A stretch of 64,000 bases of DNA, from NCBI GenBank assembly GCA_905178155.1, contig CAJINV010000002.1, positions 6,676,476-6,740,475 of the forward strand. Reading direction: 5' to 3'. Within the stretch, counting starts at the first letter, position 1. Each line of letters begins with the position of its first letter. Positions 4,289 through 62,300 of the stretch are shown one piece after another. This stretch comes from Amoebophrya sp. A120. Taxonomy: Eukaryota > Protista > Dinoflagellata. A program made the translations under genes and the position numbers. The notes below the pieces were generated by a model. That model made no database searches, was not told the origin of the DNA, and worked only from the letters and a program-made list of their open reading frames with translations.

Positions 4289-7200
4289 ATGACTTCTCTG
4301 CCATCAAGTTCAAATAAACACCCGGCTGGCCAGGCCCGCCCAGTCGATATTCTTCCGCAGGTCGCTGCACGAGAAGCTGCCGCTGCCCAAGCCACAGATA
4401 GAAGAGCGAAGACGTTGGAACGAGATAAGAGCCGTGCCGAACAAAGAAGAACTCCAAGGCAAACAGACGAGGAAATAGCTGTGGTGCGGGAGGAAACAAG
4501 TAGAATGCAGAAGTCCACTTCTTACGACCGGCAACCTCAAGGTGTTGACAATAGAGATGACCTGGGGTTGCCTGCTACTGCTTCATCCACTTGGAATTCA
4601 TCAAGCGTGTTGGCGGGCGCAGGGGTGTCTCATGCGGCGATGATTTGTCAGAGCGGGAGCAAGAATGCGCAGGAGCCTGGCAAAGAACAAAAAGCGAAAG
4701 CGTCGGAAAACAAGACTGACCCCAGCAGGACGAAAAGTTTGGGCAGTTTTTGCATGCAGCGTGATGCGGCTACACCAGCAAACTCTTGCAGCACCCGCTC
4801 CACACAAGGACGACCCGCGCTCGCACTAGTAGAGAAAGCCGAAGAGGAGCATAGAAAAAACAGCGAAGCGAGACGCACTACACACAGCAGTGAACAAGCG
4901 GCAAAAATTGAAACAGAAATGGGGGTGGAAACAAGAAACATAACCGATGTTGAAGCAGAAAGAATACCCAACGCCGAGCAGCGCTCCGCTACGTTCAAGT
5001 TTCTGACCACGGATAAAGCGAACAAACACGGGAACAATGCGGACAAACAGGAGCTGAAACCCTCTACTCTCGTCCGGGGTCCAGCAGCTACACCAGGTAC
5101 AAAAACAAAAACAACAATGATACTCTGTATCAAGATGCTCAGGATTTTTTTCCTCTCCCTCTTCTTCCTATACCTCTTCGTAAAGTCCTATGTGCTATTC
5201 CTGCCCACAACAGTCCTGAACGGAGCGGGACAAAATAAAACTGGGAATGGCCCAGGAGTTACGTCGTCCGGTAACCTAGCATTTCCATCGATCGCAACAA
5301 TCATACCATCAATGCTGCAGTTTTTGGTTCAGAAGCCGAAAGTGTACTATCGCAAAAGGGAATTAGGAGAAGAAGGAGTTAATCCTAGATACAACGAAGA
5401 GCAGGTGAACGGGGACCACGACCACTTGATCGACGAGAGCAAAACACGGATACTGAAAGCAGGAGACAGCAATTCCGCCGCCCAGCAGCACGCGCAAAAC
5501 GGAGCTGTTAGTAGTGGCGCAACTTCCACCGCGAATGAGCAAAGCGCCGACATGTGTCCGTGCCCGGCGGCGACCTACCACTGGCACATGCTCCGGAAAC
5601 GGACGGCGCAGAGCTACGAGTGGCACGGCACGGGCAGGGTCCCGCTGTTCTACGCGAATTTGGATCGAAGTAAGGGGAGGAAAATCCGGATGGACTACGT
5701 GCTGGGTGGGGGGACCACCACGGCGTCGCTCAACGGTCAGCAGCAGAATGGCGGTCTTACTGCGTCCACATCTGGAACATCAAGTAGTGTCGCAGGAGGA
5801 ACATCACCAGAAGCTGCAACATCTTCACCAGTAGCGGAACAAAGCACTGCCGCAAACCAGATTGAGCAGATTCCCTCCTACGGCGCTGCGCCGGTGATGC
5901 GCGTGCCGGGACTGGATCAGAGAAATTTGGAGAACTGGGTGCAACACAATCTGTTCACCCCCGACGATATCCTGTGCAAAAGTATCGTGCTCGCAGTAAT
6001 TGGAATTGCTATCATGCATTACTTCTAGGTAAATCAGCATTACAAATTCCATTCTTCTTCTTGAAAAAATTTGTGATGCAATTTATACTAGTACGATACT
6101 TTTGCAATGCATAGACGAGTACCTCAACAAGTACTTCCGGTGCAACATCCCCCGTCGCCCCGGCGAGTTTGGCGCCACCATGTCGCACCTGAAGCAAGTC
6201 TGGGCGGCGTACGCCTGGTTCGTCGAGCGCTCCTTTCCGGCGATGAAGGAAAAACTCCGGAAAGAGGTGGCGGACACGCTGGCGGAAAGCAGGCGCGCGG
6301 AGCAAGAGTCGGGACTCGCGAACTCCGACCAGCCGACCACACCCCCATTTGAAGACAATTCCAATGTGGATGACGAGAACCTGATGAAAACAACCAAAGA
6401 GCGCGCGGCAACTCCAGAGCCGCTCGCGACGAAACTCCCAACAGTCGATTTGGCGCACGAGCGCGGACCGCCAAAAGCGGAGGTCGGCAGTGGCGGGGCC
6501 GGCGCAGCAGCAGCAGGAGGTCTTCAACCATCTTCGCCCACTTTATCCGGGGAAGGTGTGGCAGGAGACGCTGGTGGTCAAGGTGCAGAAGGGGCCGGCG
6601 CGGGTGCTGCAGCTGCTATGATGTCCTCCGGTCGTACGACCACGGAGCCAGGCTCCTCAGATGTGGGCGGCCCCCGACGTCGCTTAGATGAAAATAACGA
6701 GAAGCGAAAACTTGGGAGAGATGAGCAACGGAATTACCACTATTACAACAAAAAACTCCCAACAACCTGGTGGTTCGACGATCCCAAGTACCGCAACGCG
6801 CTCGGGGAGCTCGTCGACTGGACACTGCGTATGGACGATAAGGTGTTCTACGGGCATCTGTCCCCCGAAGACCGCAAGTTCGCGGCGATGTTTTTCGAGG
6901 ACGACACCTCGACCGCGAGCCGGGACATCGGGTGGGGAGAGATCACGGTGACGGACTTTGCGGACGCGCTGGATGTGTACGACGCCAATTGGGAAACCCT
7001 GCGTCTAGGTTCCAACAACTGCGACGTGCCGTGGCACGTGAATCTCGGCGCAAAATTGCCCTTCTCCGAGTCGGTTTTCGCCAAGGATAACATCGAGTGC
7101 TTCGGCGCGACCTCCTACATGGTCAGCGTCCGCGGGATGCGCCGGCTGTTGAAGCAGTACCTGGTCTCGCAGCACGGCGTGGCCATCGTGGGGCGGGATT

Positions 7201-10200
7201 TGGAGCGCAAAATGCGGCTGCTGGCCGAAAGCGAGAACAAGCCGAAGGCGCCCCAGATCGGAGACAGCAGCGTAACTATCACGGACGACACCGACGCGCC
7301 ATGGGAGGCTTGGTATAAAGTTTTTTTCTGAGGTGCACATTGATTGCAAAATTTTTCCATTGTCAAACTCTTACTGCTTGCGCATTTTTTGCTGCAAAAT
7401 TGTCGTCATTATCATGAGTATAATATTCTTCACGACACAGCCCTAGACCTAGCAACGGCTGACTGAAATATTAAACAGGGGTGAAGACATGCTTGTGATG
7501 CAGTACACAGAAGCGGATTGCACCCGAGACGAATTTTGGTGCCACGGGAACATGTATTGTCTGCAAGAAAAGCACCGGCACTATTCGACGCCCGTGAAAG
7601 AAGTTTGCGCGGAGAAACTGCGGTCGCTCGAGCGGGAAGTCGCCGATTACAAGGCCAGCTTGAAGAATTTGACGCGTCTGGGCGTCCTGGACAGTGGCAC
7701 AAAAAAGTCGCTCGAGATGAAGATCACGGTTGCCGACCGCGCGTACCACTGGAACGTGGACCAGTGCGAGCCAACGCGGCGCAAGAAGCAACAGCACTGG
7801 TTTTCGTGCGTGGACAAGGTGATCCGGAAAGACCCGCGGGTCTTGCAGTTGAAGCACGACTACAAGTACAGCGTGCCGAAATTCAACATCACCAGCTTCG
7901 AGGGGATTTACCCCGTCGCCGACATCTTGATGTTTCAAGAGGCGATCAACAAGGAGCACGGGTACCGCTTGTTGCACAACTACATCTTCGAGTCCATCTT
8001 CGAGATCGAGCCGGTTTTGTCCCACGGACACATCCCGACCGCGTTGGATGACCAATTCGCCAAAGCCGGAACGATTTCGACGCTGAAGGCGCGGGAGATG
8101 GTCGTGAATTGGATGGTGGATGTCGTAATGGCGCAGGGATTCAACGCCGGCACGGCAGCGGGTCTTCCGCAGGACCGAGCAGGTGGAGCGACAGGAAGTG
8201 CAACGGGGGCGACGACCGGCACGGCAGCTGGTGGCGCGCAAAAAAGCAGCACAAACCCGTTCGCTTTCATTTCCAAAACAAAATCCTCCACATCAGACGC
8301 GAATCAGCACAGCAAGAACCCGGTAGTTAACATGACGGAGGTCCACACCACTATCCAGGAGTGGAAGTGGCTCTTGAAGCGCGGCGCGCAAAATCTGCAC
8401 TGGGTCGGGCAAGAGCAATGCGTGTACTACGTAAACCTTGACCGGTCAAAGCGGCGCCGGCGCCGCATGCGGTTGCTGTTGGGAGACAAGGGGAAGCGGG
8501 TCCGCGCGCTCGACCATTACGACAGTACACGGTGGGAACTTCTGTCCACTATTCCTACTCCCGACGAGCTGGCCAACAAGAAACCCACCAGGCACAACCG
8601 GATTGGCGAACACGCGCTGACGTTAAGTCACCTCTTCGCGGTGTGGATCGGTTTTCTCGACTACGTCGCGCTCTGGCAGCAAACCCCGGGGGGCGGGGGA
8701 CTCATGGGCGGGGGAATGATGAGTGCGACCAGTGTGAACGAAATCAAGCCGCGGCACTACGGGAAAATGGTCAACGTGGTCGCTTCTGCGGACCAGCGAG
8801 CAGCGCCGTCGGCCGCCGAGGTGTACCGGAACGACGTGAATGGATTTGAGAAAAAGGCCAGTAAACCGGCGAAACAGGGGGTCGTTGGGAAACCGGGCGG
8901 GAAGGCACTTCTACGGGGGAAAGAAGGAGGGAAAAAGCGACGCGGTCTGCGGCAGTTGGAAGAAGAGCAAAATCTTTCAAAACCCCAGCAGGGCGATGAT
9001 ATTTTTGAGTTCGAGAAGAAGTTTGTGCCCAGCAAGCAAGAGCAGCAACAGAGGAAAGCCTGGATGTCCACACTTGGTGAAAGAATATTCAACAAAACAA
9101 ATCACAACTCAACCGCAGCTGGTTCATCTCTTGGTTCCAGAACAGCCGTTGTAGCACGGACACCTCGGAATGAAGATCCATCTTTGAAAGCAGTTACCAG
9201 CAGTCAAAAAGCCTCCGGGCAACATCTCAGGAAAAAGTACAGTCAAGCGGTAACCAGCGGCACGAAGAACGATAAGGCGGCACACAACAGTACGGTTAAC
9301 GCAACGACTTCCTCCCTGGTTCCGCAGGCTGTCTACCAGTACGTGATGAAAAACAAAAAGGAATTTCCTGAATTTTTCTCCCTGCTGCAGGACTTGGAAC
9401 CAGATTTTCTCCATTTGCAAGAAGGTCATGAAGAAATAGTGTCCTCCTCCTCGTCCCAAAATGGTGCTAGTACAACTACAGCTTCAAGTGGTATTAAGTC
9501 TGGCTCTACTTCTAACCAAGACTGCGGCCCGTCGGGTTCCGTGGCCGCCAAGAATCTTCGAAAACTGCAAGGTGCGTTCCTTCCAGGCGGCTCCAGCGGC
9601 ACGGACACCTCCAACGGTGTGGGGGGCGCAAGTCGGTCCGTCTCTTCCTCCGTTTTTCCGCGGGAAACGTACGAGCAGGCGATGCGGATGTTGAAGCTAT
9701 CGCAGGAAAAAGGTGTTACAGTTACGCATTTGTTGGAGTTTCTGCATCACAAAGTTGCTCGACATGGGAACGAAAACCTGTGATGCGCACACTATAAGGG
9801 AAAACACGAATGAAATCATGAGGTTGGCAAGCATTTCCTGCATGACAGAGGTTGTTTGTCTTGCTTGTCTCCCATCAGAGTTTGTAGCTGTGACATGTTT
9901 TTCTCACGATAGAAGCAGTCCGACGACGAGTTCGTCAATGATGCGATCCGCAAAAAGCTGCACCAGCACGCCATGACCATCGTCGAGGACGACATTTCCA
10001 CCGGGGCGCACGACATTGGATACGGAAAGCTCACGTTGTCCGACCTGCGGGACGCCATCTATCGCTACGACGACCAGTGGCAGACCCTCCGCCTCGGGAC
10101 GAGCAACTGCGACCCGGCCGGCGGCAGCTGGAACGCGAGCTTCGTGCTGTTCGTAGAAGACCGGAACCCGCGGCAGTGCTACGGCGCCGTGGCCTACATG

Positions 10201-10795
10201 GTGTCGATTTTGGGCATGAAAAAACTCCTGAACACCTTCCTGGTGTCCGTCCACGAACCGCACTCGGCCGAGTATGGCGTTCTCAAACGTTACATTCTCA
10301 ACTGTTACAGGGATTTGTAATGCAAGAACAGCAATAATGGATATGGAAGTGGCATTATTGCAGCTTTCGCATCACAGATTTTCCACAGATTTAGATGCTG
10401 TTTAGCCCTTCGAAAATTTGTCATGCTACCCACCTTGATCAAGTGGAGGCTGATGGCAATTTTGCATGACAAATCCGTGTAACAGTTGAGAATGTAACAG
10501 TTGAGAATGCCACACCGAGGGACACACACTGCAGTACGGGCACTTCGAGCCGAAATTTGACCTGACCAGGTTCACCGGAAAGTACCCCGTGGCGGACCTA
10601 CTCATGTTTTCCAACGAGAACGCGTGGCGCACGCAAACCGCCTTTCTGTTCGAGTCGGTCGTCGAGCCGGATCCGGTGCTCAAGCACGGGCACGTCAAAA
10701 AAGACCGCGAGGAGGCCTTGATTCTCGACGGAATCATGAACAGCTACCGGGCGAGAGAGCAGGGGATCGACATGAGGCTGAACGTTTGGAAATAG
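4289..10795 (+). CDS. Membrane-anchored protein with two tandem glycosyltransferase family 25-like domains (~1907 aa). Exons 4289-5967, 6119-7312, 7479-9697, 9917-10272, 10520-10795
   Basis: GT25-type motifs occur twice: YANLDRSKGRK / YVNLDRSKRRR, GEFGATMSHL / GEHALTLSHL, FFEDD / IVEDD, GATSYMVS / GAVAYMVS, YPVADILMF / YPVADLLMF. Hydrophobic segment near 5120-5200. Exon sum is 5724 nt, in frame. Start codon uncertain. Confidence 0.8.
5968..6113. mobile_element. Introner family A copy (146 bp), non-canonical intron
   Basis: TATCCTGTGCAAAAGTATCGT...ACGATACTTTTGCAATGCATA; TSD GACGA at 5963-5967 and 6114-6118. Removing 151 nt joins two different frames: ...FTPD-EYLNKY. Confidence 0.92.
7313..7478 (+). 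other. Canonical GT-AG intron (166 nt)
   Basis: TG|GTATAA...AAACAG|G gives W-GEDMLVM and joins ORF 6102 to ORF 7489; AT-rich. Confidence 0.75.
9698..9911. mobile_element. Introner, singleton (214 bp)
   Basis: Imperfect ~28-bp TIR TATCGCAGGAAAAAGGTGTTACAGTTAC / GTAGCTGTGACATGTTTTTCTCACGATA; TSD GAAGC on both sides. Removing 219 nt gives MLKQSDDEF...MTIVEDD. Confidence 0.9.
10273..10514. mobile_element. Introner family C copy (242 bp)
   Basis: ~50-bp imperfect TIR (TATGGCGTTCTCAAACGTTACATTCTCAACTGTTACA...TGTAACAGTTGAGAATGTAACAGTTGAGAATGCCACA); TSD CCGAG. Removing 247 nt gives HSAE-GHTLQY...YPVADLLMF. Confidence 0.92.
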
Positions 10796-11972: not shown

Positions 11973-14900
11973 ATGATGGCCGCAGCTACAAAGGGCAACA
12001 AGACCAGGAACACCATGGAGGGTCGCGAGCTGCAAGAAGAGCCCGTGTCCTTCTGGCGACCGAGTCGGAACGGCCTGTTTTCCGTCTACACACATTTTCC
12101 TGAGGTACTGATACTGTACGTTGATTTCGTTTTTTCTTTTTTTCGTTTCACCCTATTATTTCTGGTCGTATTACCTACCGCGCGGACTATAAAACGAGAC
12201 TTCATGTTCATGCATGATTGTCTCACTGTTAGTCTTTGTCGTGTATAACCTCACCTCCTGTAGCTCCCCCACCCCAACAGGTCGCCCGAATTGGGACCGA
12301 TTACCACTGGATGCCCGCGTACTGCAAGATGAACCACAAAGTTGGTAAGAAAGAGTCCGACGAAATCCGACCACACGATTTCAAATGCATGGCGACCAAT
12401 CAGATTGGCGAGTTCGCAGCGGAGGTTTCAGGTACAGCAGTGAAAGTGTCCATGTCATTTTTGCATGCATGAGCATGGCCACTTGACTACACCCACGGGA
12501 AACAAACTTTCTTTGATGATCAGACAAAAAAGCTTTTACAATTAGCATGGCATGATAAACAATTTGTAGTCCTCGTGTCAAGGTCTGGAACTTAGTAGCA
12601 TCGAAAATATCTCGTCGTTCAAAAGAATCGGTATGCATGGTTCATTCAAAATCAAACACGACAGAATTCATCCCCTACGTCGTCTGCGAGATCCTCTTGT
12701 ACATTTTTGCCATGTTGTTTTGGAAATCGCCCGCTTTCCGAGACTCCCACCACGTGTTTGTCGACATGTTTTTGCTGAAGAAAAAGTTCCCAAAACTCTT
12801 CGACATGATGGCGGACAAGGAGCAGCAGCAGGCCTTCTACGAAGACCGCTACAGAGAGTCTCTGAGTGAGGCGGAAGCTGCAAGTGAGGGTGAGCTGCAA
12901 ACGAGTAGTCGCTTCCTGCCGTCGCTGAAATTGCGGTTTCCAAGAAGGTGAGGAAAAATGCAACAGAACTTGTGATTGTGTCGTGAGTTCGTTATGCACC
13001 GTGTGGACCTGAGTCCGTTTTAGTTCCATTGGAGCTTCCTTCGTTGCTTTTCATTCGTTGTATTTTAAAACCACTTCTGATTTTTCGTATCAATCACATC
13101 AGGTACAACCCCCTGAACGTGGAGACGCTCCCGGCGCAAGTCATAGAGGACACCAGCATTTTCTTCTCTTCCACCGCGCACGGTGGACCACTCGAGCAGA
13201 CTCCGGAAGTAGACACAGCAGCAGCAGCTGCCACGACCTCGCTGCAGAACAAATCGCGTGCCACCCTCTGCTCGACCGTCGCCACCGCGTCGCCGGATAC
13301 AACCACTTCCGGCGGTCCCAGCGAAGACGACGCTCTGACAGATCCGGACTCAATCGAGAACAAATCCATCACCAGCACGGACGAGGAAAATTTGAAGCGC
13401 AGCAGTCCGCCACTCAGCCCGACCTGTAGTAGTTCAACGAGGGCCGGTGCGACTAACTCCACGGATACGGTCGTGAATTCGGCGGGCTCAACAACGTCGA
13501 CTGCTTCTTCGAGAAGTTGCCCTGGTGCTAGTGGGTCGTCCTCGTTCCCGGCAGGAGCCAGCGCTTGCTCGTCGACTTCCAGCTCGAAGACCAGCGTTTG
13601 TAACTACAACACGACCAGCTCACTCGTCGCGCTGGAGGAGGACAAAGAGCTCGGGAAACTACCCGAACTTCCCAGACTACCTTATGAGATTCTCAATTGT
13701 TACATGAATTTGTCATGCAAATTTACCACCAAGATCGCCGCGGTTGAGCTGCTTCGCATGACAAATATCCGAAGGGCTAAACAGCATCTAAATCTGTGCC
13801 AAATCTGTAATGCAAAAGGCGCAATCTTCCCCCTTTCACTTTCGCCGTTCTTGCGTTACAAACTCATGCAACAGCTGAGAGTGTAACATTTGAGAACGCC
13901 ATATGCCTTCCGCGATGCAGGCGGTGGAGAAGGTTCCGGTGTTCAAAAACTGCAACAAGGACTATGAGAGTACACAACTCCCCCTCACCCTCATTTGTAA
14001 TGCAAAATCTCAAATCCAAGTTGTGCCTCTTGGCACTGTTTGCATGACAAGTTCTGGTAGCCCAAATAGCACTACACTGCAGTGTAAATTTCTTTGTCAT
14101 GCAAAACCGGCATTCTTGCTGATACTTGTATTGCCGTTCATGCTAATATAACTCCTATTGCTGAGCTGCGCGAGTTAAAACTTTGCGACGGGGAGGAAAA
14201 CCGCCCACGTCGAAACTTTTTTCGCAGTTTTCAAACTTTCCAAAGCTTTTGCGAGTTCGCCCATCGCCCAATGTCCATCGCCCAGTCGCCCACTGTCCAT
14301 CGTCCAATGTCAGTCGCACAATGTCCATCGCCCAACGTCCATCGCGCAACGTCCATCGCCCAATGTCCAAACTTTGCGCCGGGAAGGAAAATCGCCCATG
14401 TCGAAAATTTTTTTGCAATTGTCGAACTTTCGAAAGCTTTGGCGAGTTCGCCCACCGCCCAATGTCCATCGCCCAGTCGCCCAATGTCCATCACCCAGTC
14501 GCCCAATGTCCCTCGCCGAGTCGCCCACGGTCCAAACCATCGCCCAACACCCATCGCACAATGTCCAAAGCACAACGTCCATCGCCCAATGTCCGTTGCC
14601 CAATGTCCATCGCCCAATCCCAACAAAAATACTCTTTCCGTTTGCAATATTTCTAAGAAGAAACATCTTGCAACCCCCGACAAAATTTTTTTCCGTTTTC
14701 GCGACTTCTTTCCCGTTTTCAAAACTCCCAACCAAAAATAGCAAATATTTTCCAACTCGAAATATTTTGCAACGCGAAATATTTTGCGCGTGGAAATATT
14801 TCGCCATCCGAAATATTTTCCAACCCGAAATATTTTGCGCCGCGAAATATTTTGCGCGTGGAAGTATTTCGCCATCCAAAATATTTTGCAGCTCGAAATA

Positions 14901-17900
14901 TTTTGCAACGCAAAATAACTCCTATTTTTGCTGGGCTGCGGAACTTAAAATTTTGCAACAGGGAGGAAAATCGCCCACGTCGGAATTTTTTTTGCAGTTT
15001 TCAAACTTTCCAAAGCTGTCGAGATTTGCATGCGAAATCGGCCAACGGCCAACGGCGAACCGCCCAAGCCCCATCGCAGACGTCGAATCGCCCAAGTCCC
15101 ATCGCAACTCGAACTATTTTGCAACCCGAAATATTTTGCAACTCCAAATATTTTGCGGCTCAAAATATTTCGCGAGTCCAAATATTTCGCAACTCAAAAT
15201 ATTTCGCAAGTCCAAATATTTTGCAACTCAAAATATTTTGCGACCCAAAATATTTCGCGACCCAAAATTAATGCGAATCGCCCAACGCTGAATCGCCCAA
15301 GTCCCATGGCAAACGGCGAATCGCCCAACGGCGAATCGCCCAAGTCCCATCGCAAACGGCGAATCGCCCAAGTTCTATCGCAAACGGCGAATCGCCCCAG
15401 TCCCATCGCAACTCGAAATATTTTGCAGCTCCAAATATTTTGCCGCTCGAACTATTTTGCAACTCCGAACATTTTGCAACTTCAAACATTTTGCGGCTCA
15501 AAATATTTCGCAAGTCCGAATATTTTGCAACTCAAAATATTCTGCAGCTCAAAATATTTCGCAAGTCCAAAAATTTTGCAACGCAAAATATTTTGCGATC
15601 CAAAATATTTCGCGACCCAAAATATTTTGCGGCCCTCCCAAAATATTTCGCGGCCAAAAATATTTCGCGACCCCAAATATTTTGCAACAATCTCCCAACG
15701 CCCTGCCTCCCCGGTTTTGCAACACGGGGAAAGCGGGAAGCACGGGGAAAGCGGGAAGCACGGGGAAAGCGGGAAGCACGGGGAAAGCGGGAAGCACGGG
15801 GAAAGCGGGAAGCACGGGGAAAGCGGGAAGCACGGGGAAAGCGGGAAGCACGGGGAAGGCGGGAAGCACGGGGAAAGCGGGAAGCACGGGGAAAGCGGGA
15901 AGCACGGGGAAGGCGGGAAGCACGGGGAAGGCGGGAAGCACGGGGAAGGCGGGTGGGAAGCACGGGGAAAGCGGGAAGCACGGGGAAGGCGAGAAGCACG
16001 GGGAAAACGGGAAGCACGGGAAAAGCGGGAAGCCCGAGGAAGAAAAGCGGGAAGCACGGGGAAAACAAGCGGAAAACACGGGGGAAACACGCGGGAAGCA
16101 CGGGGGAAACAAGCGGGAGGCACGGGGAAAGCGGGAAGCACGGAGAAAGCGGGAAGCACGGGGGAAGCGCGCGGGAAGCAAGGGGAGGGCGGGGAGCACG
16201 GGGAAAGCGGGGGGCACGGGGAAAGCGTGCGGGAAGCACGGGGAATGCGGGAAGCACGGAGAAACAAAGCGGGGAGCGCGGGGAGAGCACGAGGAGAGCG
16301 AGAGGCCCTGGGAAAGCGGGAAACACGGGGAAAACGGGAAGCACGAGCGGAGGGCACACAGACGGTGGGGGGCCCGCACCGCGAACGCCGCCGGCGGCCA
16401 AGCACCAGGCGAGCAGCTGCCCACCAACCTCCCCCGGCGCCCTCCCTCTGTTCGCGCAGGGAAAGCCGCACCCCAGCACCACGCTTCCAGGCGAGCAGCT
16501 GCCCACCACCCTCCCCCGGCGCCCCCCCTCTGTTCACGAGGGGACCGGCAGAGGGCGCCACCGTCCGCCGTCTCTGTCTTGGAGGGTGCGCGCGAGGGAA
16601 GCAGGCGGGGGCGGGACAGATTGCATGCGGGCTAACGCGGGGGGCGCCGTTGTCCGGGGGTGCTGGGGGAGGGTGATGGGCCCCTGCGCCTGGGGGGGGC
16701 AATGAATGCCCCAAACCGGCGCCCGTCCGGTCCCCCATGCACGCGCGGCGCGCGACAGGGGCCCCAGCAAGCCCCTGCTCTGCAAGGCTGCGCGCGGGAG
16801 AAGGGCGGGGGGCGGCACCAAGGCGCGCAGGGGCGGGGCACACACGCAGGCGGCACGAACGGGCCACACCACAGACGCGCGGGCGGGGCGGCACGCGCCA
16901 GCGCCTCGCATGGCGCGGGCTGTTCCCCTGCTTCCTTCCTCCGTCCACTGGCGCCTGCCCGCTGCCGCGCTTTGCGTTGTTGCTGGGGCATAAGGCCTGC
17001 CGCCACGCAAGCGCGCGCCCTGTGCGGGCGGAGTCCTCGCGCTCGCACAACGACGGGAGCCACGGGCGCCATGGCGCTCCGCCTTCGTTTTTTCAGCAAG
17101 AAGCGGCGCAGATGCCTGGCCCCGCCCTGCGTCAAAGATTTTTCCCTTGCCCACCCTCTGGCGTTTTTCTTTCCACCCTGTCCACTCGTTCACCCTCCCA
17201 CTGCGCGACATAAGCTGCAGCCTTGTACAAATGAGGGGGAGGGGGAGTTGTGCACTGTCATAAGGACCATACGCTCGACATTAAGGAACACGCCGAATTC
17301 GACGGGGACGCGGTGCCAATCTTCGTGAAGCCGAAGCGGGGGGCGTACGGCGAAGACTGCCACATCCGCGACTTGCGAAGTGTGGTGCACAAGGTGTATG
17401 AAGCAAAAGCGAAGAGCGGTTGCAGAAGTTCTACTGGTGGAGCAGGACGAGACTCCAGTTGTACTTCGTCATCTTCGAGCAGCTCATCTTCCAGGTCCTC
17501 GTCTCTAGCACCTTCGCAAGGAGCTGAACCAGATTCCTCCTCCTGGACCTGCGACCACGAGTGGACGAAGAAGCGCGTGGAATTTCTCCTCTTTGAAGAG
17601 CTTCTGACCAACGCGAAGCCCTTCCAACAGGCCATGAAGGCCGGCGGCATCATCAATTCACTCGCGCACCCGCTAGTCACCTTGCGCATCTGGACGAAAC
17701 GGTTCCACGAGGACAAAAATGACTACGTCGCCGCGTTGCTCGTCGGCCCCGAGGATGAGGAAATCTCGAATTCGAAAAAGAACAGCTGTTACAAGGTCGT
17801 GAAGATGCCCAGCGAGCAGGTCGTGGCTCAGGATGCTGAAGAGAATAGTACGAAAGTTAGATACGGTGTGAGGAAATCAAAAAAACACCCGTGGGTCGAG

Positions 17901-18298
17901 ATCCCGGATTTCGCGGAAATTCTCAGGACCTGCGAGTGGGCCGCGGATCAAACACCGGAACTGCCGATGCTCGGTAATATTATAGTGACGGTCTTCATTC
18001 ATATTCCTACTTGGATTTGACAAACTGAATCTACGTACATCGATAGGATTCTGAGTTTTCCAGTTCCACCTCTAATTTGTATTTGCGTCAAAAACGCCAC
18101 GAATATGATAATATAGCTACGAACAACTTATTTTTTTTTCTTGTTTCAGGTTCCGACTTCGCCGTTTGTGCCGATGGTTTCTACCTGTTAGAAGTAAACC
18201 CGATGTGTTCCTACACGCGGTACGCGCACGTGCTTGGCCATTTCTACACCGAGGAGGAGGTGGACTTGTACGTCCGGAGGCAGAATTTGAGTTCCTGA
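11973..18298 (+). CDS. ATP-grasp fold protein (~684 aa). Exons 11973-12104, 12281-12431, 12665-12947, 13103-13682, 13909-13962, 17268-17973, 18150-18298
   Basis: The spliced product contains PIFVKPKRGAYGED and MLGSDFAVCADGFYLLEVNP, the KP..G..G and G.D....LEVN motifs of ATP-grasp enzymes. Exon sum is 2055 nt, in frame. Substrate unknown. Confidence 0.72.
12105..12280 (+). other. Canonical GT-AG intron
   Basis: GAG|GTACTG...CAACAG|GTC, phase 0, joins ORFs 11973 and 12236. Confidence 0.7.
12432..12664 (+). other. Canonical GT-AG intron
   Basis: G|GTACAG...CGACAG|AA, phase 1, joins ORFs 12236 and 12637. Confidence 0.6.
12948..13102 (+). other. Canonical GT-AG intron
   Basis: AG|GTGAGG...CATCAG|G, phase 2, joins ORFs 12637 and 13029. 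Confidence 0.7.
13683..13903. mobile_element. Introner family C copy, opposite orientation to 10273 (221 bp)
   Basis: Ends TTGAGAACGCCATA, the reverse complement of the 10273 start. Internal CGAAGGGCTAAACAGCATCTAAATCTGTG is the reverse complement of sequence at ~10384-10412. TSD TACCT/TGCCT. Removing 226 nt gives RLP-SAMQAV. Confidence 0.9.
14145..15700. repeat. Composite satellite: CGCCCAATGTCCAT-type units, CGAATCGCCCAA-type units and AAATATTT(T/C)GC units, plus a ~100-bp higher-order unit (14148, 14916, partial 14369)
   Basis: Directly visible. More than 25 copies of the palindromic AAATATTT core at ~18-19 bp spacing in three clusters. Confidence 0.9.
15722..16345. repeat. 18-bp minisatellite GCACGGGGAAAGCGGGAA
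   Basis: About 12 near-perfect copies up to ~15950, then degenerate copies; strong purine strand bias. Confidence 0.95.
17974..18149 (+). other. Canonical GT-AG intron
   Basis: G|GTAATA...TTTTTTCTTGTTTCAG|GT with a polypyrimidine tract; restores MLGSDF. Confidence 0.8.
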
Positions 18299-33800: not shown

Positions 33801-34749
33801 AGCGAATGGCAAGAACGAGAACATGAAAGCGCCATCTTCCTCACGACAACGTTTGAAATTCAAAACGGGACGAGGGCCAGGACCTGCCCGACACCCCAAC
33901 GCGCAGTCCTTTGTCTCGGACCGTGTAGACCTAACTCCCCGCTACGGCTTTAACAAGGGCGTGTGTATTTGGTTTGAGCACCTGTGGCACTTGCTTTTTG
34001 GGGTTGACGACGCAAGGTGGAAACCCAAGGAGGAACGGAGCTTGGGAGTTGGAGTGGGGTCATCTGCAGCTGCATCCGGTCTTCTTGCCAAGGTGGACGT
34101 CGACCTCGAACACAGCGGCAGCAGCTCATCTTGTCCGGCGGAGATCCACCGCGACGTTGAAACCTCCAGGAGGGTGCTGGTTCGACCTCCTGCTCACTAC
34201 CTTCACGAGCGGGACGAAATCCAGCGGCGGCTCCCACATCGCGACATACGAAATAAGTGAACAACCTCCCCTCTCGCTCATTTGCATTGCACAAACAGCA
34301 ATACAAGCGTCGGCAAGAATGCAGGTTTTGCATGACAAATTTTCCCAGGCTTGTAGTGCTGTTTGAGCTTCCACAACTTGTCGCGCCAAAAGTGGCAAGA
34401 GGCAAAAGGGTGGATTTGGTATTTTGCATGACAAGCGAGAGGGAGGGGCAGGGGGAGGAGTGCACTCTCATACGACATCGTGCGGTACGACGATGCGGAG
34501 TTGGACTACGAGAATTACACGCCGAACTACTTTCACAAGAACTTCGACTATGATTTCACGAAGACCGCGGACGTCTTGAAGTTTGAGAAAAGAAGATACC
34601 TGTCCTATTCCCGTTGGGACGATGCGACTTTGCCTCTAGCCTTTCGCGACTACGTCGATAGCATTCAGCTCCACAAGTATCTCCTCACGCCAAATGAAAC
34701 CTGCGCTCTGATGAACAAATGTATGCCGCCAATTCGGCTGAGAATATAG
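30895..34749 (+). CDS. Secreted or membrane protein with DUF3431-like domain (~1155 aa). Exons 30895-31821, 31978-34246, 34478-34749
   Basis: N-terminal hydrophobic leader and a Cys-rich module (CC...CF..GGFSFDMCC). GEIVAYFYHLWKYYDRMSDVTLFLH, QFLVSRDRVR and FEHLWHLLFG resemble the DUF3431 motifs. Exon sum is 3468 nt, in frame. Confidence 0.75.
31822..31972. mobile_element. Introner family A copy (151 bp)
   Basis: TATCCTGTGCAAAAGTATCGTAG...CTAGTACGATGGTTTTGCATTGCATA; TSD ATCAG. Removing 156 nt gives KAHQ-LSSQD. Confidence 0.92.
34247..34472. mobile_element. Introner family D copy (226 bp)
   Basis: TACGAAATAAGTGAACAACCTCCCC...GGGGAGGAGTGCACTCTCATA; TSD CGACA. Removing 231 nt gives HRDI-VRYDD. 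Confidence 0.9.
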
Positions 34750-46600: not shown

Positions 46601-49600
46601 CACAGGTCCCGGACCTGCCTTCCCTGCCGGAGAGGGCTCAACGAACAAGCACAGTCTCGATCACGGTATCTCCGCTGCGTCGAGCGAGCACCGAAGCGGC
46701 AGCGGCCGTGTCGGATCTTCTGGAACGAGCGGAATGGGGTCTTCAGTCAGTGGTAGTGGCGTTGGATCTTCTGTGAGCGGTAGTGGCATGCTTTCCTCGG
46801 CAACCACCAGTGGCGTGCAATCTGGAATGAGCGGGAGCTCCATGCAGCGATCTTCTATAACTACTAGCGGCGTCCAATCTGGAATGAGCGGAAGCACCAA
46901 CATGCGATCTTCTGCAACTACTAGCGGTGTGCAATCTGGAATGAGCGGAAGCACCATGCGATCTTCTGCAACTACTAGCGGCGTGCAGTCTGGAATGAGC
47001 GGAAGCAACATGCGATCTTCTGCAACTACTAGCGGCGTGCAATCTGGAATGAGCGGGAGTACCATGTCCATGCGATCTTCCGCAACTATCAGCGGGGTGC
47101 AATCTGGAATGAGTGGGAGCGGTATACAATCCACAATGAGTGGCAAAAGTGGAGGTATCCAGTCCTCCATGACCGGGAGTAGCATGCCATCTTCCGCGAG
47201 CGGTTCCAGTGGCATCCGATCTTCTAGGCGTACAGCAAGTGGCATGGAGTCTGGACCGATGAGTGACATGCGTTCTGGAGATAGGGCATCCAGTGGAACG
47301 TTCGGGGCGCAGTCTGCAGCCAGTAACCTGCCGCAGTCTGGGACCAGCAATCGAACCAGCGGAGGGGAGCAACCTGTGCAGAGCGGGATGTTGGGCTCAA
47401 CCACGTCTACCGCGCGGCTAAGCGGCGAATCGGGTCAGACTCAGAGCGGTCTGCAAAGTATTGCCCCAGGGTCTGATCGTCCAGGGTCTTTTGCAGTAGA
47501 TTCCTCCGCGACCATCGCTGAGGAGGCCCACAAGATCTTGAGTTCATCTTCAGGACGAAAAAAACAGATGCTCCGGAGGTCGAGCGACCGGCCTTCGCAG
47601 TCGACTGTGCAAAGCGAGGGCGCACCACCAGAAAACCGCACGGAGCAGATTTTCGGGAAACAGGAGCTGTCTCCGCGGGGCCAGATGCTGAGAGTGAAGC
47701 CCTCCGCGAGTGCCTCGGGATTGAGCATCACAAGTGGACAGAGTGGGGCCTATAACAGCCTTAAGTCATCCAGGGCCACAGGGGATGACAGCACAACGAA
47801 TAAGGGCAACCACAGTCCTCCAGGGCCGGCCCAGATGGACCTCCTCCAAGGCAGCTTACCGAATAAGCACCAAAAGGATCAGCTAGGTGCCTCGGCCGGC
47901 GGCGCGGGCGGTGCTCCTTTCATTTTCTCGTCCTCCTCCAGTGGCGCGAGCGACGCCCCGGCATTGACATCGAGCAGCGGCACGGGGCTCGGCGGCACAC
48001 AGCTGACCGGCAGCATGCCGTTCGGGACCGGGAGCACGGGGAGTCTCTCCGCCTCCTCCCGCAGGGCGCCCAGAGAAGGCGGATTTCAGAAGAACCAAGT
48101 GCCCGCCCGGCAGCACCTCGACCAGGCGGGGGTTGGCCCCGGGGGCGTGCGGTTCAGCCCGGTTTACAACTACCGGAACAACGTCCCCGCGGGGCCGGGC
48201 TACAACCAGTCGGGCATGCAGTTTCGCGGGGCGGACGTGGTGCAGGAGCAAAAGGACCCGAATTGGCTGCACAAGGACAAGCCGCAGCCGAAATTGGTGA
48301 ATTTCCAGCCCATGAACCCGGTGTACGGCGGGATAGGGAATCAAGAAACAACCCAGCAATTCCAGACCTTGGAGCACCTGCAGCCGCAGCACGGGGCGGC
48401 CAACTCGATTTACGGGGGCTTCAAGGAAAAAAACCGGCTCGATTTCTTCGACCGCCGCATCGGAGGGGTGGACGAATTCGGCATCGACCTGTACGCGCAA
48501 CAGCGCAAGATGGGGGACGGGGAGTACTTGGAGGTGGACCCCCTGCACGGCTCGCACCAGCAGAACTTCGTGGAGCGGGACCAGTTTGTGATGTACGAGC
48601 AGCAGGGCGCGACGGAGAAGTTCGCGCGGAACAAGGCGGGCACCGGGGCGGACTACCTGGCCGGGGACCATCAGCATCAGCAGATGGTGGCTCCGGGGCG
48701 GCAGGTGGAGCGCAAGTTGAAGCACATCGTGCCCGGGTCGGTGCCGCAGGAGAAGGACGTGCAGTACAAGCGTGGGCCGAACTACCGGATCCTGTCCAAG
48801 GGCGGAGACCAGGACTGGAACGCGTCGATGCGGCAGGGCGTACAGTTATCCTGTTGTTGAAAAACGTCTCTGTGAGGACCCCGACCCCGTAGTCAAGTTG
48901 TAGATGAGAATTCGAATTGTTGTTGCGCATGACAAATCCGGGCTCGTAGTGTAGTCGTGGTAGCGAGTGCAGCCGCATGGCAGGTAGATCATCTATATCA
49001 TGTTCCTAGCGTGACAAACACCGAGACGGGACTAGTGAACGCTCCTCAGGAGGCTACGCATGACGAGAAACTTTCAAGTCATGTCGATTTGCATGACCAT
49101 CACCATGACATAGATGGAGCGGGGGGGACGTTTTCCCTGTTGATAGCAGTTCAACCCGGCAGCGATGGACGCGAACCGCGTGGATTCCCCCCAGACTGTC
49201 GCCCAGGCAGGCGACTGGATGCGGGGGGACACGCCGTTGTACATGCCCGGGGAGAAAATGACGGAGTTTCTCACCGCGGATCAGGCGCGGCACCGAACCC
49301 GGTACCTCGACGCCGTGCAAAAGCAACACGCGAAGTGGGAGCTGCCCGAGCCGGATCTGAGCCTGGTTCCCCCAAACCAGCGCACCGCGGAGATGCAACG
49401 CCGCGAGCAAATGAAGAACTACGCGCCGAAGGTGAATGACGCCTTCGGGCTGCAGCAGCGGGTGCAGATGGCAAGAGAGCTTGGGCTGGACGAGGCGCCG
49501 GCCATGGCGACCGGGGTGAGCGGCGCGGCGGGCAGCGTGGCCATTCCTCCCTACTACACCACCCCGCGGCTCGGGACAGCAGCACGCCCGGTACCTGTTG

Positions 49601-52600: not shown

Positions 52601-55346
52601 GGGAAATGCTGCACCAGACGCTGGTCTGGTGGGACACGTATAAACTGCAAAAGCATCGCACTCGTATAAATGCATATACAAATACTCTCAGCGTCAGAAA
52701 TAAAATTTGTAATGCGGATTTACCATACGAAAATGCATGACTGCAATACGAGTGCGATACTTTTGCACAGGATAACACGTTGCGCAACCGGATTCTGGCC
52801 AAAGAGGAGGAGAACAGCACCATCTTGGAGCAGGAAGTGCACCGGTTGCGGTTCCTATCCACAGTAAATTTCCCGTACACGTACAAATTCGGAATCTGCA
52901 TGACAAAACTTGGGCTCTGCAAGGTAGCGAAACTTGTCATGCATTTTGTATGCCCATGTACAGGAAATTTACATTGCATAGCTCCAGTTCGAGGACTACG
53001 CGAGCCACGAGGGCCGGTTCCGGGAGGAGTACGCCGCGTACCTGCGGGACCGGTCCGGCGTCGCGAAGGACCTGCAGCACATGCTGGGCTTGTGCACGGT
53101 TTCCGAGGCCGCCACGATCCGGAAGGAAACGAAGATGGTGCGGCAGAAAACGCATCTGCTGGAGATCTTGCTCGACGCGCTGGAGGAGATCCGGTCGGTG
53201 AGATCGATGTACTACAACTTGGAACATTTCAGCAAACTGCCGGAATACTGGCGCGGCCAGGAAAACGCGGTGGGCGTCGACGCGCACAAACACGACAAAG
53301 ACGTGGGCTTCTACGAAAACACGGTGGACAAGCTGATCAACCGGTACAAGCCGTGGGAATTGGAGCGGGACAAACACCGGCGGCCCGGGGATGTTGCGCA
53401 CAAGACCTCCGATTTCGTCTCCGCGGGGCAGGAGGTGGCGAGCCGGGTGTTGGAGAAGATCAACGACAAGGCGGGGATCACGAATAACACCAAGGGCGCG
53501 AGGTACAAGTCGGCCCGACAGTCGATTGAGAAGCAAATCAGCGACTTGGCAACCGTGTTCTACAACATGCGGCACCGGATTTTTTCGGAGGACTTTGACA
53601 TTGCGCGGTGCGCCTACAAGGCGGGTTTAGCCGCCGCCAAGGCCCTGCCAATCATTGAGTCTCCGGTGCCGTTGTCGGTGCACCAAATACGACGAGAGCA
53701 GAAAAGCTTAATGGAGTTGCTGGACAACTACACGGCAGTGGAGCACTTGTATGAAATTCTAGTTCTTTCTGATGAATTTAGCTTTGCGACATCGGTTTGA
53801 TGATGTTTGTGATTCAGTTCTTGAACGAATCTTGGGATTAGGTTTTCCACGTCGCTACGGCGTTTTTCATGAAGCAGTCACGTGTTGTACTTAACAGGAC
53901 TAGCTGCCTTTCTCAGATGCATCCGTACAGTGGTACAGTTCTTTTTCGTCCTCTCTTCTCCACAGGTACAGCTCGGACCCGGCGATATCGCAGAACTTTC
54001 CGAAAGTGCTCAAGTGCCGCCTCGAGCTGCTCCGCCGCTGTTTGGACACGATCGGCGGCGGCGACGTCGACCGTCTCGCCTCCGGAATCCCGTTGCACAT
54101 CCGCGCGATCACCATGGGCGCGCAGGACAAGGACATGGGTGAGCTCGGGAAGAGGGGCGAGAAAGTGCCCTTGGACAACTCGAAAACCGGGCAACCCGGC
54201 TCCGACATGTGGAAATCGCCCGGTCTCGACGAGGCGGATGATTGGAGCCAGTCGAAGAATCCGTACCTGCAGAACTTGAAAGAAGTTCCCCGCGACGTGC
54301 TCTGGGGCGGCCCGGTGAAACGGCCGAAGCCCAAGGACTACCAGGCGAAGGCCAAACCGAAGGCGAAGCGCCGGAGGAAGCCCAAGCACCACTTCGGCGG
54401 CGGCGACGACCCGTCGAGCGAAGGCGATGGCAGCAGCAGCAGTAGTTCTAGTGCCAGTAGCAGCACTGCCTCCGAATCCTCCTCGTCCTCGGAGGATTCC
54501 TCGGAGGAGGAACAATCCGAAGTGCAGAGTTCCGTGCGGCAGAGCTCCCAGCGCGACGGCAAAAAACCGAAGAAGCGGGCTCAGTCGAAGAACGGGCCGA
54601 GTACGAAGAACATCGTCAGCAACAGCGCTATCGAGGGCTCAGTGCGCCAGAGCTCGCGGAAATCCGACAAGGGCGGGAAGCGTGGTAAGGACAAGGTCAA
54701 AATCAAGGCCGGCGCACACAAGGACGAGAAATCAAACATCAAGTCCGGCGGCAGCTCGGAAAGTTCATCGTCCAGCGACAGTGAGTCCTCCTCCGGGCAG
54801 CGCCCCTCCGGGGCGACGGCGAAGGCGAAAGCCAAGCCGAGAGCGAAGTCGCGGACGTCAGCCAACATCATGTCGAACGACAAGCCGGGTGGACAACGCG
54901 GGGGAGGCGCGAAAGGCGCGACGGACCGGATCTCGTTCGTGCCGCGCCCCTCCGCGGCATCAGAAGTCGATGCGGTGGACAGCGACCTGCCACAGATTCC
55001 GAGCATGACCGGGTCCATGATGGGGTCCGCGACGGAGGACATTCCCGTCGCCGGACCGGGCCGAGGGAAAGAATTCAAGTCGGGCGTGGCCATGCCGGAC
55101 AAAAACTCCCCGCTCGGGCGGCTGAGCGGCCGCACCACCGGGCAGAGCGTCGTCACCGCGGGATCGCCGAGCCAGCGGTCCATTCCGGAGTCGGCGATTC
55201 GGGCGTCCAGCAGCTCGAGTTCGTCCTCCTCCACCAGCGGCGCGAGCCAAAGCAAGAGCGCCGGACCCTCGGTAGGTGGGGGCGTCGGGGGAAGTGGAAG
55301 CGGGAGTGGCAGCGGAAGCGGAAGTGGGAGCAGTAGTGACTCGTGA
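43671..55346 (+). CDS. Giant, largely disordered hypothetical protein (~3627 aa) with a coiled-coil/helical region. Exons 43671-48846, 49151-52638, 52780-52855, 52986-53748, 53966-55346
   Basis: Five ORF segments join in frame (10884 nt). Ser/Gly/Gln-rich, with a heptad-like Glu/Leu/Gln region at ~52400-52850. Confidence 0.78.
46790..47120 (+). repeat. Coding tandem repeat (54-60 bp units) encoding SSATTSGVQSGMSGS(T/N)MR, six copies
   Basis: Repeated ACTAGCGGCGTGCAATCTGGAATGAGCGG; all unit lengths preserve the frame. Confidence 0.9.
48847..49145. mobile_element. Introner, singleton (299 bp)
   Basis: TATC...AAAACGTC / GACGTTTT...GATA; TSD ACAGT/GCAGT (mismatch at a wobble position). Removing 304 nt gives GVQF-NPAAMD. 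Confidence 0.82.
52639..52774. mobile_element. Introner family A copy in reverse orientation (136 bp)
   Basis: Ends CGATACTTTTGCACAGGATA, the reverse complement of the family A start; TSD ACACG. Removing 141 nt gives WWDT-LRNR. Confidence 0.92.
52856..52980. mobile_element. Introner, singleton (125 bp)
   Basis: TIR TATCCACAGTAAATTTCCCGTACA / TGTACAGGAAATTTACATTGCATA; TSD GTTCC/GCTCC. Removing 130 nt gives R(F/L)QFEDYAS...QHMLG. Confidence 0.88.
53749..53965 (+). other. Canonical GT-AG intron (217 nt)
   Basis: TT|GTATGA...CTCTCTTCTCCACAG|G with a strong pyrimidine tract; gives EHL-YSSDP. Confidence 0.82.
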
Positions 55347-59302: not shown

Positions 59303-62300
59303 ATGAAAAAAACAGACAAGATGATGGGGCGGGCTCAGGCGCAGCGGGGCTTTCGCTTTCCTTTTGTGGTTACTCTTGTCTTCGCGACGTGTTGTCGCTT
59401 TGCCTATGGTGGGGAGACTACGTCAGCAACATCACACGTGCATCTTGAAGATGTCTCCTCCCCGTCCGCGATCGAGGAGGATCATGTTCATGTGAGGATT
59501 CCTTCGGGCACGACGATGACTTCACCCCCAGAGCAACTTCGAGAGCCCGCTGTCAAAAACATTCAAGGCGGACCTAGTCCTCCGAACCCGTGCGAAGTGG
59601 CTCTGCGAGAGCAAGTGCGAGGCACGACTTTGACGCAATTCGGAAAATTACTGCTCTTCGGTACGGGAAAACAAATTCCATACGACGCAGGAAAGTACAA
59701 GTTTTGCCGAGCACTGGAAAACGCAAAGTATTTCCTGGCGGAGTTCCAGTACCAGTATGTCAACGGGGGTGAGGTGGAGGAGGAGCAACAGCAGAAGCAA
59801 GGATATCATGGCGCTTTTACGAAAGAGGACGGCACCAACGTTGTCGAAAATCTGCTTGCGCCAGCAGTTTCTGAAGTGCTTTCGCGAACGACCATATCAC
59901 AGGATGATCGGGAGGACAAAATTCTTGAGAAAAACGATGGGCAGCACCCATTGTTCTCGTTCCCGAGAAACATCATTCTCGATGCCCTCAATCCCATGCT
60001 TCAAACCGAAGACTTGTTGACGGGAAATAAACTGTTTGCAAACCCGGCGATAATTGATGCCCGCCGAGGACATCCGAATCTTCACGCAGCTCCGAATAAA
60101 GCCTTGGCCATCCCGATGAAACTGGGTCTGTGCCTTCCCGCGACGCACGTGGTCAATAACAAGCGCCTCCCAGCTTGCACGAAACAAACCGTACACGACA
60201 TGCTGCAAGACTGGATGCGACCCAAAGCGGCTGCGCGAAGAGGCTCGAAACTTTCGTCCGCATCAGCAAGCCATGAAGCCGAACTGCAGACACAAACCAC
60301 GACCAAACTGGAAGATGAAGATCAAGATGATTCAAACACCCGTCTGCTCAGCGCCGTCATTCCCACCGATTCCAAGCAAAAGGACGCGACCAAAGTGCAA
60401 ATCACCTGCCCCGAGGAGGACACGGTGACTTCCCTCGATGACTACGCGATCGCGTCTATCGGCTTTCTCGGGCTATTGCTTTTGACAGTCATTACCGCGA
60501 CCTTCCGGGTGCAGGTTTTCGAAGCTGCGATGGAAAAGTACGAGAAAAATGTCAGGCTGCAATCGGAACTGGATCGGAGACTAGTGGAGAGTTACTGCAG
60601 CAACAGCGTGTCGACGAGCAGTTTGCTGAACAGCAGTTATCCAAGTTCGGAAGTCGGTGGTGGGGAAAATAATGATGTTTTGGTCGTCAACGCCGAGACC
60701 ATTCAGACACCGAGAGGAATGGAAGATGGTACTCTTTCTAGTACTGAAGTAGATGTATGCAACTTTTATTGCCTAAGCGTAGTTAGGTAAATGGTACAGA
60801 CTTGTTTTTTGTGATTGATATTCAAGATTCGTGATGAGCAAGACATGTTGACAATTACAAATCAGAAACAGGCTCTACCGACGGCACGCCCAGTACGGCA
60901 TCGTCACCAAACGAAGCGGAGCCAACATCACAAGCTACTACACCTAGAGGAGCCACAGCAGCAGCACCTGCAGTTGTTTCGTCATCCTCTGCAAAACAAG
61001 CAAAGCAGCTCAACACGGGCACCGCGTCCCGGCCGCTTCTCATCGTCGACACGCTGATGGAGCGACGGTTAGAGGAGCAGACCACCATCCCACAACTCCC
61101 CCGTCCGATCGCCCCACCACTATGGGCGAAAGCGTTTGCGCTGTTTGGGAAGACAGGGACGTTGACGAAGTTGTTTCAGACAAATACGAACACAGGAAGA
61201 AAAAACAATTCGCCCAGAAAACCCCACACCAACGACCGGCCGACGGATTGTCTGAACGGAATGCGGGTTTTGTCTATGCTCTGGATCTATCAAATGCAAA
61301 AATGTCTGGGTCTGGAAGAGTCCAAGACTTGTGATGCAGGTTTTCCATGACCCGTGAGGTCTGGAATGCGAGACCCAGCATGACAAATTCTTTGAGGTCT
61401 CTATCATGCCTTTCCTGCGTGAGAAACTCCCTCTCAGCTTGGTCAAAAGCGGACAGCTTTTGGCACTCACGCAACACAGATTTTTGCATCATTCAGATTT
61501 AGCATGACAGGTTCTAATCTTCCCGACCCAGACATTTCTACATTTGATAGGATCATCCTTGGCCATACCTTTCTCATGCCCGAAGGCCTCACCGGCTACA
61601 GCAACAACGAGGACATCGCGAGCATCATGCGACCGTTCGTGACCGCTGACTTCAGTAGCGAGACCGCGCCCTGGCTGATGTTTGTGCTCGCTGCGGAATT
61701 TGGGGTGGACAGCTTTTTCTTCATGAGCGGGTTTTTGCTCTCCTTGCTGCAACTACAAGAGCTGGAGAAGAAGCACGGGAAGAGGAGTATCAGGGATAGA
61801 AGAAGTGGATCATCTGCTGAAAATTCTACAAATCGCAGGCCGTCCCTCTTCCAACACTTCAAAAAGTGGCTTTTTGGCTTGTTCCAGCGGTACGTCCGGT
61901 TGACCCCAAGCCTGGCACTGGCTTTGATGCTGTACTACAAAGTTCTCTACTTTTTCGTCGCGATTGGCGACCAAGGGAGCAGCGCTGTTCCTGTCGATGG
62001 TGATAGCATCGTGCAATCTGTCCCCTCCTCCGGGCCTTTCGTCCCCTTACTGCAAGACTCGATCAAGAACAAGTGCGATTCCTCCTGGTGGAGCGAACTC
62101 AGCTACACGGTGAATTTCATCCCCTTTGACTCCGACAAGGTCTGCATGGGCTGGAGCTGGTACCTGGGGAATGACATGCTGTTTTTCGCAGTGGGCACGG
62201 TAATTGTGCCGCTTTACTTTCACAAGTCGAAACTGCATGGGGTTATTCTCCTGCTCACGTTTCTCCTCGCCGCTGTCGGGATCACGACCTACCTGATTTA

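Follow-up and report, generated by a model that had tools for sequence, protein, structure and literature searches.

How does a eukaryote remove tens of thousands of introns that have neither a donor nor an acceptor sequence? The question is raised by a 64,000-nucleotide stretch of the dinoflagellate Amoebophrya sp. A120 (contig CAJINV010000002.1, positions 6,676,476 to 6,740,475 of the forward strand; hereafter the window), in which 15 insertions with terminal inverted repeats (TIRs) and target-site duplications (TSDs) interrupt coding sequence. These insertions are the introner elements published for A120 by Farhat and colleagues (2021; PMC7789003), and the annotated A120 proteins P0001 and P0007 are 100% identical to open reading frames (ORFs) of the window. 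The original prediction, made from the sequence alone, had named Amoebophrya introners as a parallel. The published class does match, and the window proved to be Amoebophrya A120 itself, so that the case is one already in print.

According to the text of Farhat et al. (2021), 65% of the RNA-supported introns of A120 are non-canonical. The same text reports 29,850 repeated introner elements, with inverted repeats consisting of TAT, seven variable bases and then As, direct repeats of 3–5 nt, and junctions supported by RNA-seq. Neither U1 small nuclear RNA nor transposases were found in A120, nearly all spliceosomal proteins plus U2, U4, U5 and U6 are kept, and both the intron border and the removal mechanism were called unknown. 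The nine predominant non-canonical sites in Table S4 of that paper all have T at +2. Gozashti et al. (2025; PMC12130899) assigned A120 introners to several transposon classes, and the two published results disagree on an A120 transposase. GT-AG introns and U1 are both present in another Amoebophrya (PMC12005148).

The introner class and its open mechanism are therefore already known. A literature search, outside which lay most subscription papers and the figures of Farhat et al., returned no resolved removal mechanism and no report of element orientation or subterminal motifs. Within the same scope, the following features described below were not found in print: a fixed 5-bp TSD, insertion in both orientations, a shared internal motif, a length of up to 3.3 kb, targets free of sequence signal, terminal TAT/ATA triplets more conserved than the TSD, and a likeness of the N/TAT junction (slash, cut) to ordinary donors.

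Anatomy of the elements

A re-scan of the window bore out all 15 starts of the original prediction, together with its terminal grammar; the right ends were placed here (Table 1). The left triplet is TAT in 14 elements (TAC once) and the right triplet ATA in 13 (ACA once, GCA once), which places TAT at 27 of the 30 element ends. Positions 11–14 of the TIR carry A at 16, 20, 20 and 23 of the 30 ends respectively, a run that is common, not universal. A 5-bp duplication flanks every element, as predicted. It is exact at 10, with one mismatch at four (13683, 36485, 48847 and 52856) and two at 39266, mismatches that the prediction had not stated. When the junction is slid through the duplication, GT-AG can be obtained at 21963 only and is impossible at 14 of the 15 sites. 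No register offers an AG at 13683, 34247, 36485, 38234 and 52639. Both counts agree with those predicted.

The description of the insertions as similar to miniature inverted-repeat transposable elements (MITEs) holds in size for 13 of them (125–443 bp), the other two being larger (3300 and 1176 bp). Like MITEs, the elements have TIRs and a duplication of fixed length, are short and non-coding, and occur in many copies. Nine belong to three families within the window (A, B and C), each inserted in both orientations, and two more have relatives in other contigs. The properties of the published introners were likewise all found: location in the A120 genome, a TIR starting with TAT and followed by an A run, a direct repeat, a non-GT-AG junction supported by probable RNA contigs and repeated copies. 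In a chance test, the window was scanned for a TSD plus TIR with a score of at least 12 and compared with eight shuffled windows. This score was reached by 12 of the 15 elements, against one such match in the eight shuffled windows. The other three (38234, 34247 and 48847) score in the chance range; two of them are confirmed by RNA contigs (see below).

Removal of each element with one copy of its duplication places all 15 inside eight continuous plus-strand ORFs of 406–3213 codons, in seven genes. Restoration of the frame had thus been correctly predicted in every case. If kept, 14 of the elements would bring an in-frame stop and 10 would shift the frame; each of the 15 does at least one of these. 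Motifs of orthologues become unbroken after removal across 61288 (MLWI/ILGHT in P0002 and P0003; slash, junction) and 5968 (TPD/EYL in P0006). The annotated A120 protein P0007 lacks both element 13683 and the 3.3-kb element 13963. For 39266 and 48847 the frame is the sole evidence.

Eleven of the 15 elements also contain an internal motif, GCAT[G/T]ACA, with 22 matches in both orientations, versus one in the other 57 kb. The fuller form of this motif, approximately TTTGCAT[G/T]ACAAA, has self-complementary arms and is common to unrelated families; its sole match outside the elements, at 56066, is a poor one. An additional candidate at 3379–4400 was rejected. Its score of 12 was also reached in a shuffled window, the internal motif is missing from it, and its end falls within an ORF.

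Evidence for removal at the RNA level

Contigs from three sequencing runs were mapped over 20800–39250, a region with five elements. Runs X3 and X6, from one study, were guessed to be RNA; run X1 behaves as DNA, its kind not being recorded. At all five elements, X3 or X6 contigs skip exactly the element plus one duplicate (154, 156, 231, 229 and 448 bases); three of the skips come from the table of joints and two from the table of aligned pieces, among the joints listed. Four of the five skipped elements are non-GT-AG. At 36485, the X3 joint keeps letter 2 of the upstream duplicate. Splicing at the RNA level with the junction at the TSD, as originally proposed, agrees with these exact skips and with the orthologue motifs restored across two junctions.

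Indirect RNA evidence was obtained for two more elements. On 52000–54000, the word share in runs X3–X6 was 0.70. The expected share is 0.714 if 52639, 52856 and a GT-AG intron are all gone, and 0.79–0.80 if either element stays. The observed value fits the former better than the latter, which favours removal of both elements and the intron. At 23170 and 36990, contigs of X3 and X6 leave the window sequence with the same foreign letters; these are likely short matches from other genes.

The original prediction had held open programmed DNA excision. In such a scenario, programmed or simply frequent excision would rid the DNA of the elements before transcription. With TIRs and TSDs the elements are built like a transposase substrate, and the relevant data are from one probable DNA run of unknown life stage. 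That run, X1, nevertheless covers all 30 bins, with a depth of 42–48 in bins without high-copy elements and no difference in depth between elements and flanking sequence. Contigs of this run pass from flanking sequence into the elements, and one of them, at depth 42.7, crosses 38234 without a break. For the three listed joints the X1 count was 0, and no empty site of the kind expected from DNA elimination was seen in this one run. A low-depth X3 contig, partly unspliced, retains part of 38234 (38331–38695; depth 7 versus 57 for the skipped form), which also speaks against prior loss from the DNA. No germline/soma split is known for this parasite, and excision would therefore be inherited and the elements lost. 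DNA excision is thus very improbable. RNA-level removal is favoured, since probable RNA contigs skip the elements while the probable DNA run keeps them at flat depth.

The joined sequences might alternatively reflect slips of reverse transcriptase across the hairpin, between the direct repeats, with the true mRNA keeping the element in a dead or bypassed gene. A hairpin with direct repeats is a known source of false non-canonical junctions (PMC4176328), the product is exactly the element plus one repeat, and the wording 'template switch' is absent from the text of Farhat et al. (PMC7789003). However, the skipped form dominates at 38234, by the depths given above, and ORFs as long as 3213 codons are free of stops. 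Retained elements would break the gene in all 15 cases, yet orthologue motifs show conservation to either side of the insertions. Genome-wide, some 30,000 inserts of this kind have been reported (PMC7789003). Bypass by ribosome hopping fits poorly with 36485, where the in-frame codons of the two duplicate copies differ. Such slips are accordingly considered improbable as the source of the joints, and the identity of the elements as A120 introners together with their removal from RNA can be held with high confidence.

Related elements in other contigs

A scan for family A ends found at least 152 stretches (loci L001–L152), and the 80 listed are all from contigs of record JACKZZ01. These contigs (L001–L080) belong to a public assembly dense in the element families of the window at 81–91% identity, with several elements per contig and no long unique sequence in common with the window. 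In total, 263 distinct related elements were collected. Fourteen with more than two repeat mismatches were dropped, leaving 249, of which 136 could be oriented with respect to transcription. The duplication is exact over 5 bp in 182 of the 263 and exact over 6–9 bp in none. Of 161 elements with usable flanks, 41 had clearly coding-like sequence on both sides. In 40 of these the two sides agree in strand, and all 40 keep the frame. A method based on ORF length gave 33 of 38.

The orientable elements show no target-site base preference, and family A lies with transcription in 33 cases and against it in 38. A bias of 10:3 in an early subset disappeared in this larger set. GT-AG is possible in five of the 136, versus eight on the antisense strand, and 61 of the 136 have no AG. 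In the window, such GT-AG ends, as expected of a U2-type intron, are possible in 1 of 15.

For the terminal triplets, a finder blind to the triplet was used. Of 188 related elements found in this way, 177 have TAT...ATA. Mismatches between left and right amount to 1.5–1.6% in the terminal triplet versus 4.0–5.2% between the duplicate copies (Fisher p 0.0004–0.012). This lower mismatch suggests selection on the termini after insertion, base-specific mutation rates being uncontrolled in the comparison. In the family A-type ends (L001–L152), TIR positions 1–3 and 8–20 pair and positions 4–7 mostly do not (55–86% mismatch), giving a short stem at the terminus followed by a 4x4 loop. The loop is probably a family trait, as 61288 pairs fully at those positions.

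Proposed origin and mechanism of removal

The elements are best explained as copies of non-autonomous TIR transposons that inserted into exons with a 5-bp duplication; a relaxed spliceosome, directed by the terminal hairpin, likely takes them out of the pre-mRNA. Taken as a whole, this explanation is given an even chance; the spliceosomal step, considered by itself, is placed slightly below that. The insertions would have been made by a DNA transposase acting in trans, to judge from the fixed 5-bp duplication, the TIRs, the free orientation and the shared internal motif, which is likely the binding site of the transposase.

As orientation and target sequence are both free, only symmetric features are left for removal, namely the stem, the terminal triplets and the repeat. 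In the transcript, the TIRs would pair and replace donor recognition of the U1 type. The U2/U5/U6 core would most likely cut one base before TAT, where N/TAT offers U at +2, A at +3 and U at +4. Joining would take place four bases past ATA, at a point set by distance and not by AG, and the duplication would render the product seamless in whichever register. Read from one base before TAT, N-T-A-T matches positions +2 to +4 of the ordinary GTAY donors of the window, in which GTA is present in seven of eight GT-AG introns and GTAY in six of eight. The letter kept at 36485 excludes the two leftmost registers, leaving N/TAT and three others compatible. In Fritillaria, TIR-derived non-GT-AG introns are removed by the U2 spliceosome (PMC11282704; bioRxiv 10.1101/2025.08.15.670264). 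This precedent and the donor match of N/TAT are the reasons for which a hairpin-guided relaxed spliceosome is put first.

Several observations weigh against this explanation, or limit it. The RNA nature of X3 and X6 is a guess; both are from one study, which may be the data behind the annotation, and X1 may be the assembly's own sample. As the runs may underlie the assembly and annotation, they serve more as confirmation of the published result than as an addition to it. Selection on RNA pairing would favour G-U over A-C mismatches on the sense strand, and the ratios were 21:21 in the window and 119:122 in the 136 related elements; an excess of 47:21 in a 33-element subset vanished in that larger set. 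Several elements, among them the spliced 21963 and 34247, show weak outermost pairs when folded. Stems are predicted to form, but the strand asymmetry that selection on RNA pairing would leave was not found, and the proposed guidance of the cut by the TIR stem is an inference. The 5' and 3' triplets are conserved alike (98 versus 96 of 100), with no asymmetry on the donor side. All five positions of the duplication carry mismatches between the two copies (8, 11, 13, 6 and 7), a crowding at positions 1–2 in an early subset not having been upheld in the larger set, and 24 of 45 are synonymous, above the prediction for a fixed register (p 0.06 at omega 0.2). These mismatches give a weak hint that the register of the cut is variable. 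Codon frequencies did not discriminate which duplicate copy is exonic. In the text consulted of Farhat et al. (PMC7789003), the rule by which Table S4 sets junctions inside the repeats is not stated. Finally, a relaxed spliceosome is a best guess for the removal enzyme.

A separate, non-spliceosomal machinery, either a structure-specific endonuclease with an RNA ligase or a circle-releasing route as in euglenids, could instead cleave at the foot of the TIR stem and ligate the exons. It would suit the symmetry of the elements, their insertion in either orientation, the equal conservation of both triplets and the absence of AG (61 of 136 related elements and five of 15 here), and it needs no polypyrimidine tract. 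Non-conventional euglenid introns with paired ends are released in circular form, with no lariat, and other factors are presumed to act on them (PMC12501133; PMC11282704). However, transposition by itself predicts TIR symmetry, TAT matches +2 to +4 of the local donors, and A120 retains nearly all spliceosomal proteins along with U2, U4, U5 and U6. No candidate enzyme was found here, and none was searched for. Such a machinery is regarded as possible but rather unlikely. A bolder form of the idea is a machine free of splice signals that would excise every TAT...ATA hairpin from 0.1 to 3.3 kb, whatever its orientation, along with one 5-base repeat, making exon insertion neutral; GCATKACAAA would then mark one and the same factor by which many unrelated families are mobilised or excised. 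This we consider doubtful.

A relaxed spliceosome, if confirmed, would reveal how much latitude its catalytic core has, and a separate machine would represent new splicing chemistry. The window supplies test substrates for both, including one family in both orientations, AG-free elements, five sites with mismatched duplicates able to fix the position of the cut, and a 3.3-kb element.

Genes, ordinary introns and other features of the window

The gene models are all on the plus strand, and the 15 elements all lie in coding DNA, which accounts for about 72% of the window once the elements are taken out (a probability by chance of about 0.007). Eight ordinary GT-AG introns were counted in the element-bearing genes, one more than the seven of the original prediction (Table 1).

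The 3.3-kb element at 13963 consists of a MITE body (about 13963–14151 and 17226–17262) around a 3.1-kb block. This cargo (14152–17226), within a reversed family C element, contains 14-, 17- and 18-bp satellites and a GC-rich block. Pfam searches identified no transposase family in the two longest ORFs of this element, nor among 25 ORFs. A collagen match inside 13963 was dismissed because it arises from the 18-bp satellite. Rfam gave no match in the window. Nested in 39266, at 39484–40233, are three 139-bp units that are nearly identical, as well as 162-bp units related to them; every unit carries a hairpin of its own that ends in TAT...ATA. A GC-rich intergenic block at 28980–30400 starts near a TIR-like GTGCAAAAG word and has no match elsewhere in the window or the loci; RNA contigs do not extend beyond about 28920.

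Table 1. Introner elements and GT-AG introns of the window. Duplications are given as left/right copy; a slash within a protein motif marks the junction.
Feature	Position	Strand	Duplication	Remarks
Introner, family A, 146 bp	5968..6113		GACGA/GACGA	removal gives TPD/EYLNKYF as in homologue P0006
Introner, 214 bp	9698..9911		GAAGC/GAAGC	relatives at 81% in loci L036/L037
Introner, family B, 242 bp	10273..10514		CCGAG/CCGAG	right end ACA; frame continuous with homologue P0006
Introner, family B reversed, 221 bp	13683..13903		TACCT/TGCCT	missing from annotated A120 protein P0007
Introner, family C reversed, 3300 bp	13963..17262		AGGAC/AGGAC	missing from annotated P0007
Introner, family A, 149 bp	21963..22111		GGTTT/GGTTT	sole possible GT-AG register; X3 skip 154, none in X1
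Introner, family A, 151 bp	31822..31972		ATCAG/ATCAG	X6 record 17 joins 31816 to 31973, skip 156
Introner, family C, 226 bp	34247..34472		CGACA/CGACA	left end TAC; no AG in any register; X6 record 19 joins 34241 to 34473, skip 231
Introner, family C, 224 bp	36485..36708		AGACC/AAACC	no AG in any register; X3 joins 36481 to 36711, skip 229
Introner, 443 bp	38234..38676		TCTGG/TCTGG	no AG in any register; X3 skip 448; DNA contig X1 record 8 spans unbroken
Introner, 1176 bp	39266..40441		AGCAC/AGTGC	right end GCA; internal 139-bp tandem hairpin units; frame continuity only
Introner, 299 bp	48847..49145		ACAGT/GCAGT	weak TIR; frame continuity only
Introner, family A reversed, 136 bp	52639..52774		ACACG/ACACG	no AG in any register; indirect RNA support (word share)
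Introner, 125 bp	52856..52980		GTTCC/GCTCC	indirect RNA support (word share)
Introner, 262 bp	61288..61549		GGATC/GGATC	splits conserved MLWI/ILGHT of acyltransferase-3 gene (P0001, P0002, P0003); relatives at 84–91% in loci
GT-AG intron	7313..7478	+		in-frame join resembling homologue P0006
GT-AG intron	12105..12280	+		reproduces annotated P0007
GT-AG intron	12432..12664	+		reproduces annotated P0007
GT-AG intron	12948..13102	+		reproduces annotated P0007
GT-AG intron	17974..18149	+		reproduces annotated P0007
GT-AG intron	20666..20863	+		loose end of X3 contig at 20864 equals upstream exon end
GT-AG intron (likely)	53749..53965	+		best in-frame GT-AG join; consistent with word share; frame and word share only
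GT-AG intron	60729..60871	+		reproduces annotated P0001

Comparison with known systems

In the available text on the A120 introners (Farhat et al., 2021, PMC7789003; Gozashti et al., 2025, PMC12130899), the organism is the same and every main trait recurs: TAT-starting TIRs followed by As, short direct repeats, non-GT-AG ends, genes of mixed content with canonical introns, RNA-supported junctions and no internal transposase. There is no difference in kind; the analysis window of the paper was 40–1000 bp, versus elements of up to 3.3 kb here.

The MITE-derived introns of Fritillaria borealis are similar to those of A120 in being TIR/TSD elements that serve as non-GT-AG introns beside canonical ones (PMC11282704; bioRxiv 10.1101/2025.08.15.670264). 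In contrast to A120, where the ends are free and U1 was not found, Fritillaria has preferred AG-AC and AG-AT ends, keeps U1 and has been shown in these sources to use the U2 spliceosome.

Similarly, the non-conventional introns of euglenids have paired ends, direct repeats at the borders, a likely MITE origin and an unknown machinery, with GT-AG introns alongside (Nomura et al., 2025, PMC12501133; PMC11282704). According to these reports, those of Euglena carry a CAG/CTG-type pair at a set spacing and are released as circles, whereas the A120 elements have TAT...ATA ends, strict 5-bp duplications and clear multi-copy families. The signature given for the euglenid introns is N3CDG...CH'GN5-6|R.

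MITEs in general share with the A120 elements the TIRs, the duplication of fixed length, the lack of coding capacity, the high copy number, the insertion in either orientation and an AT content above that of the flanks. As a difference from MITEs, the A120 elements sit in exons and are removed from transcripts, and no cognate transposase has been identified for them.

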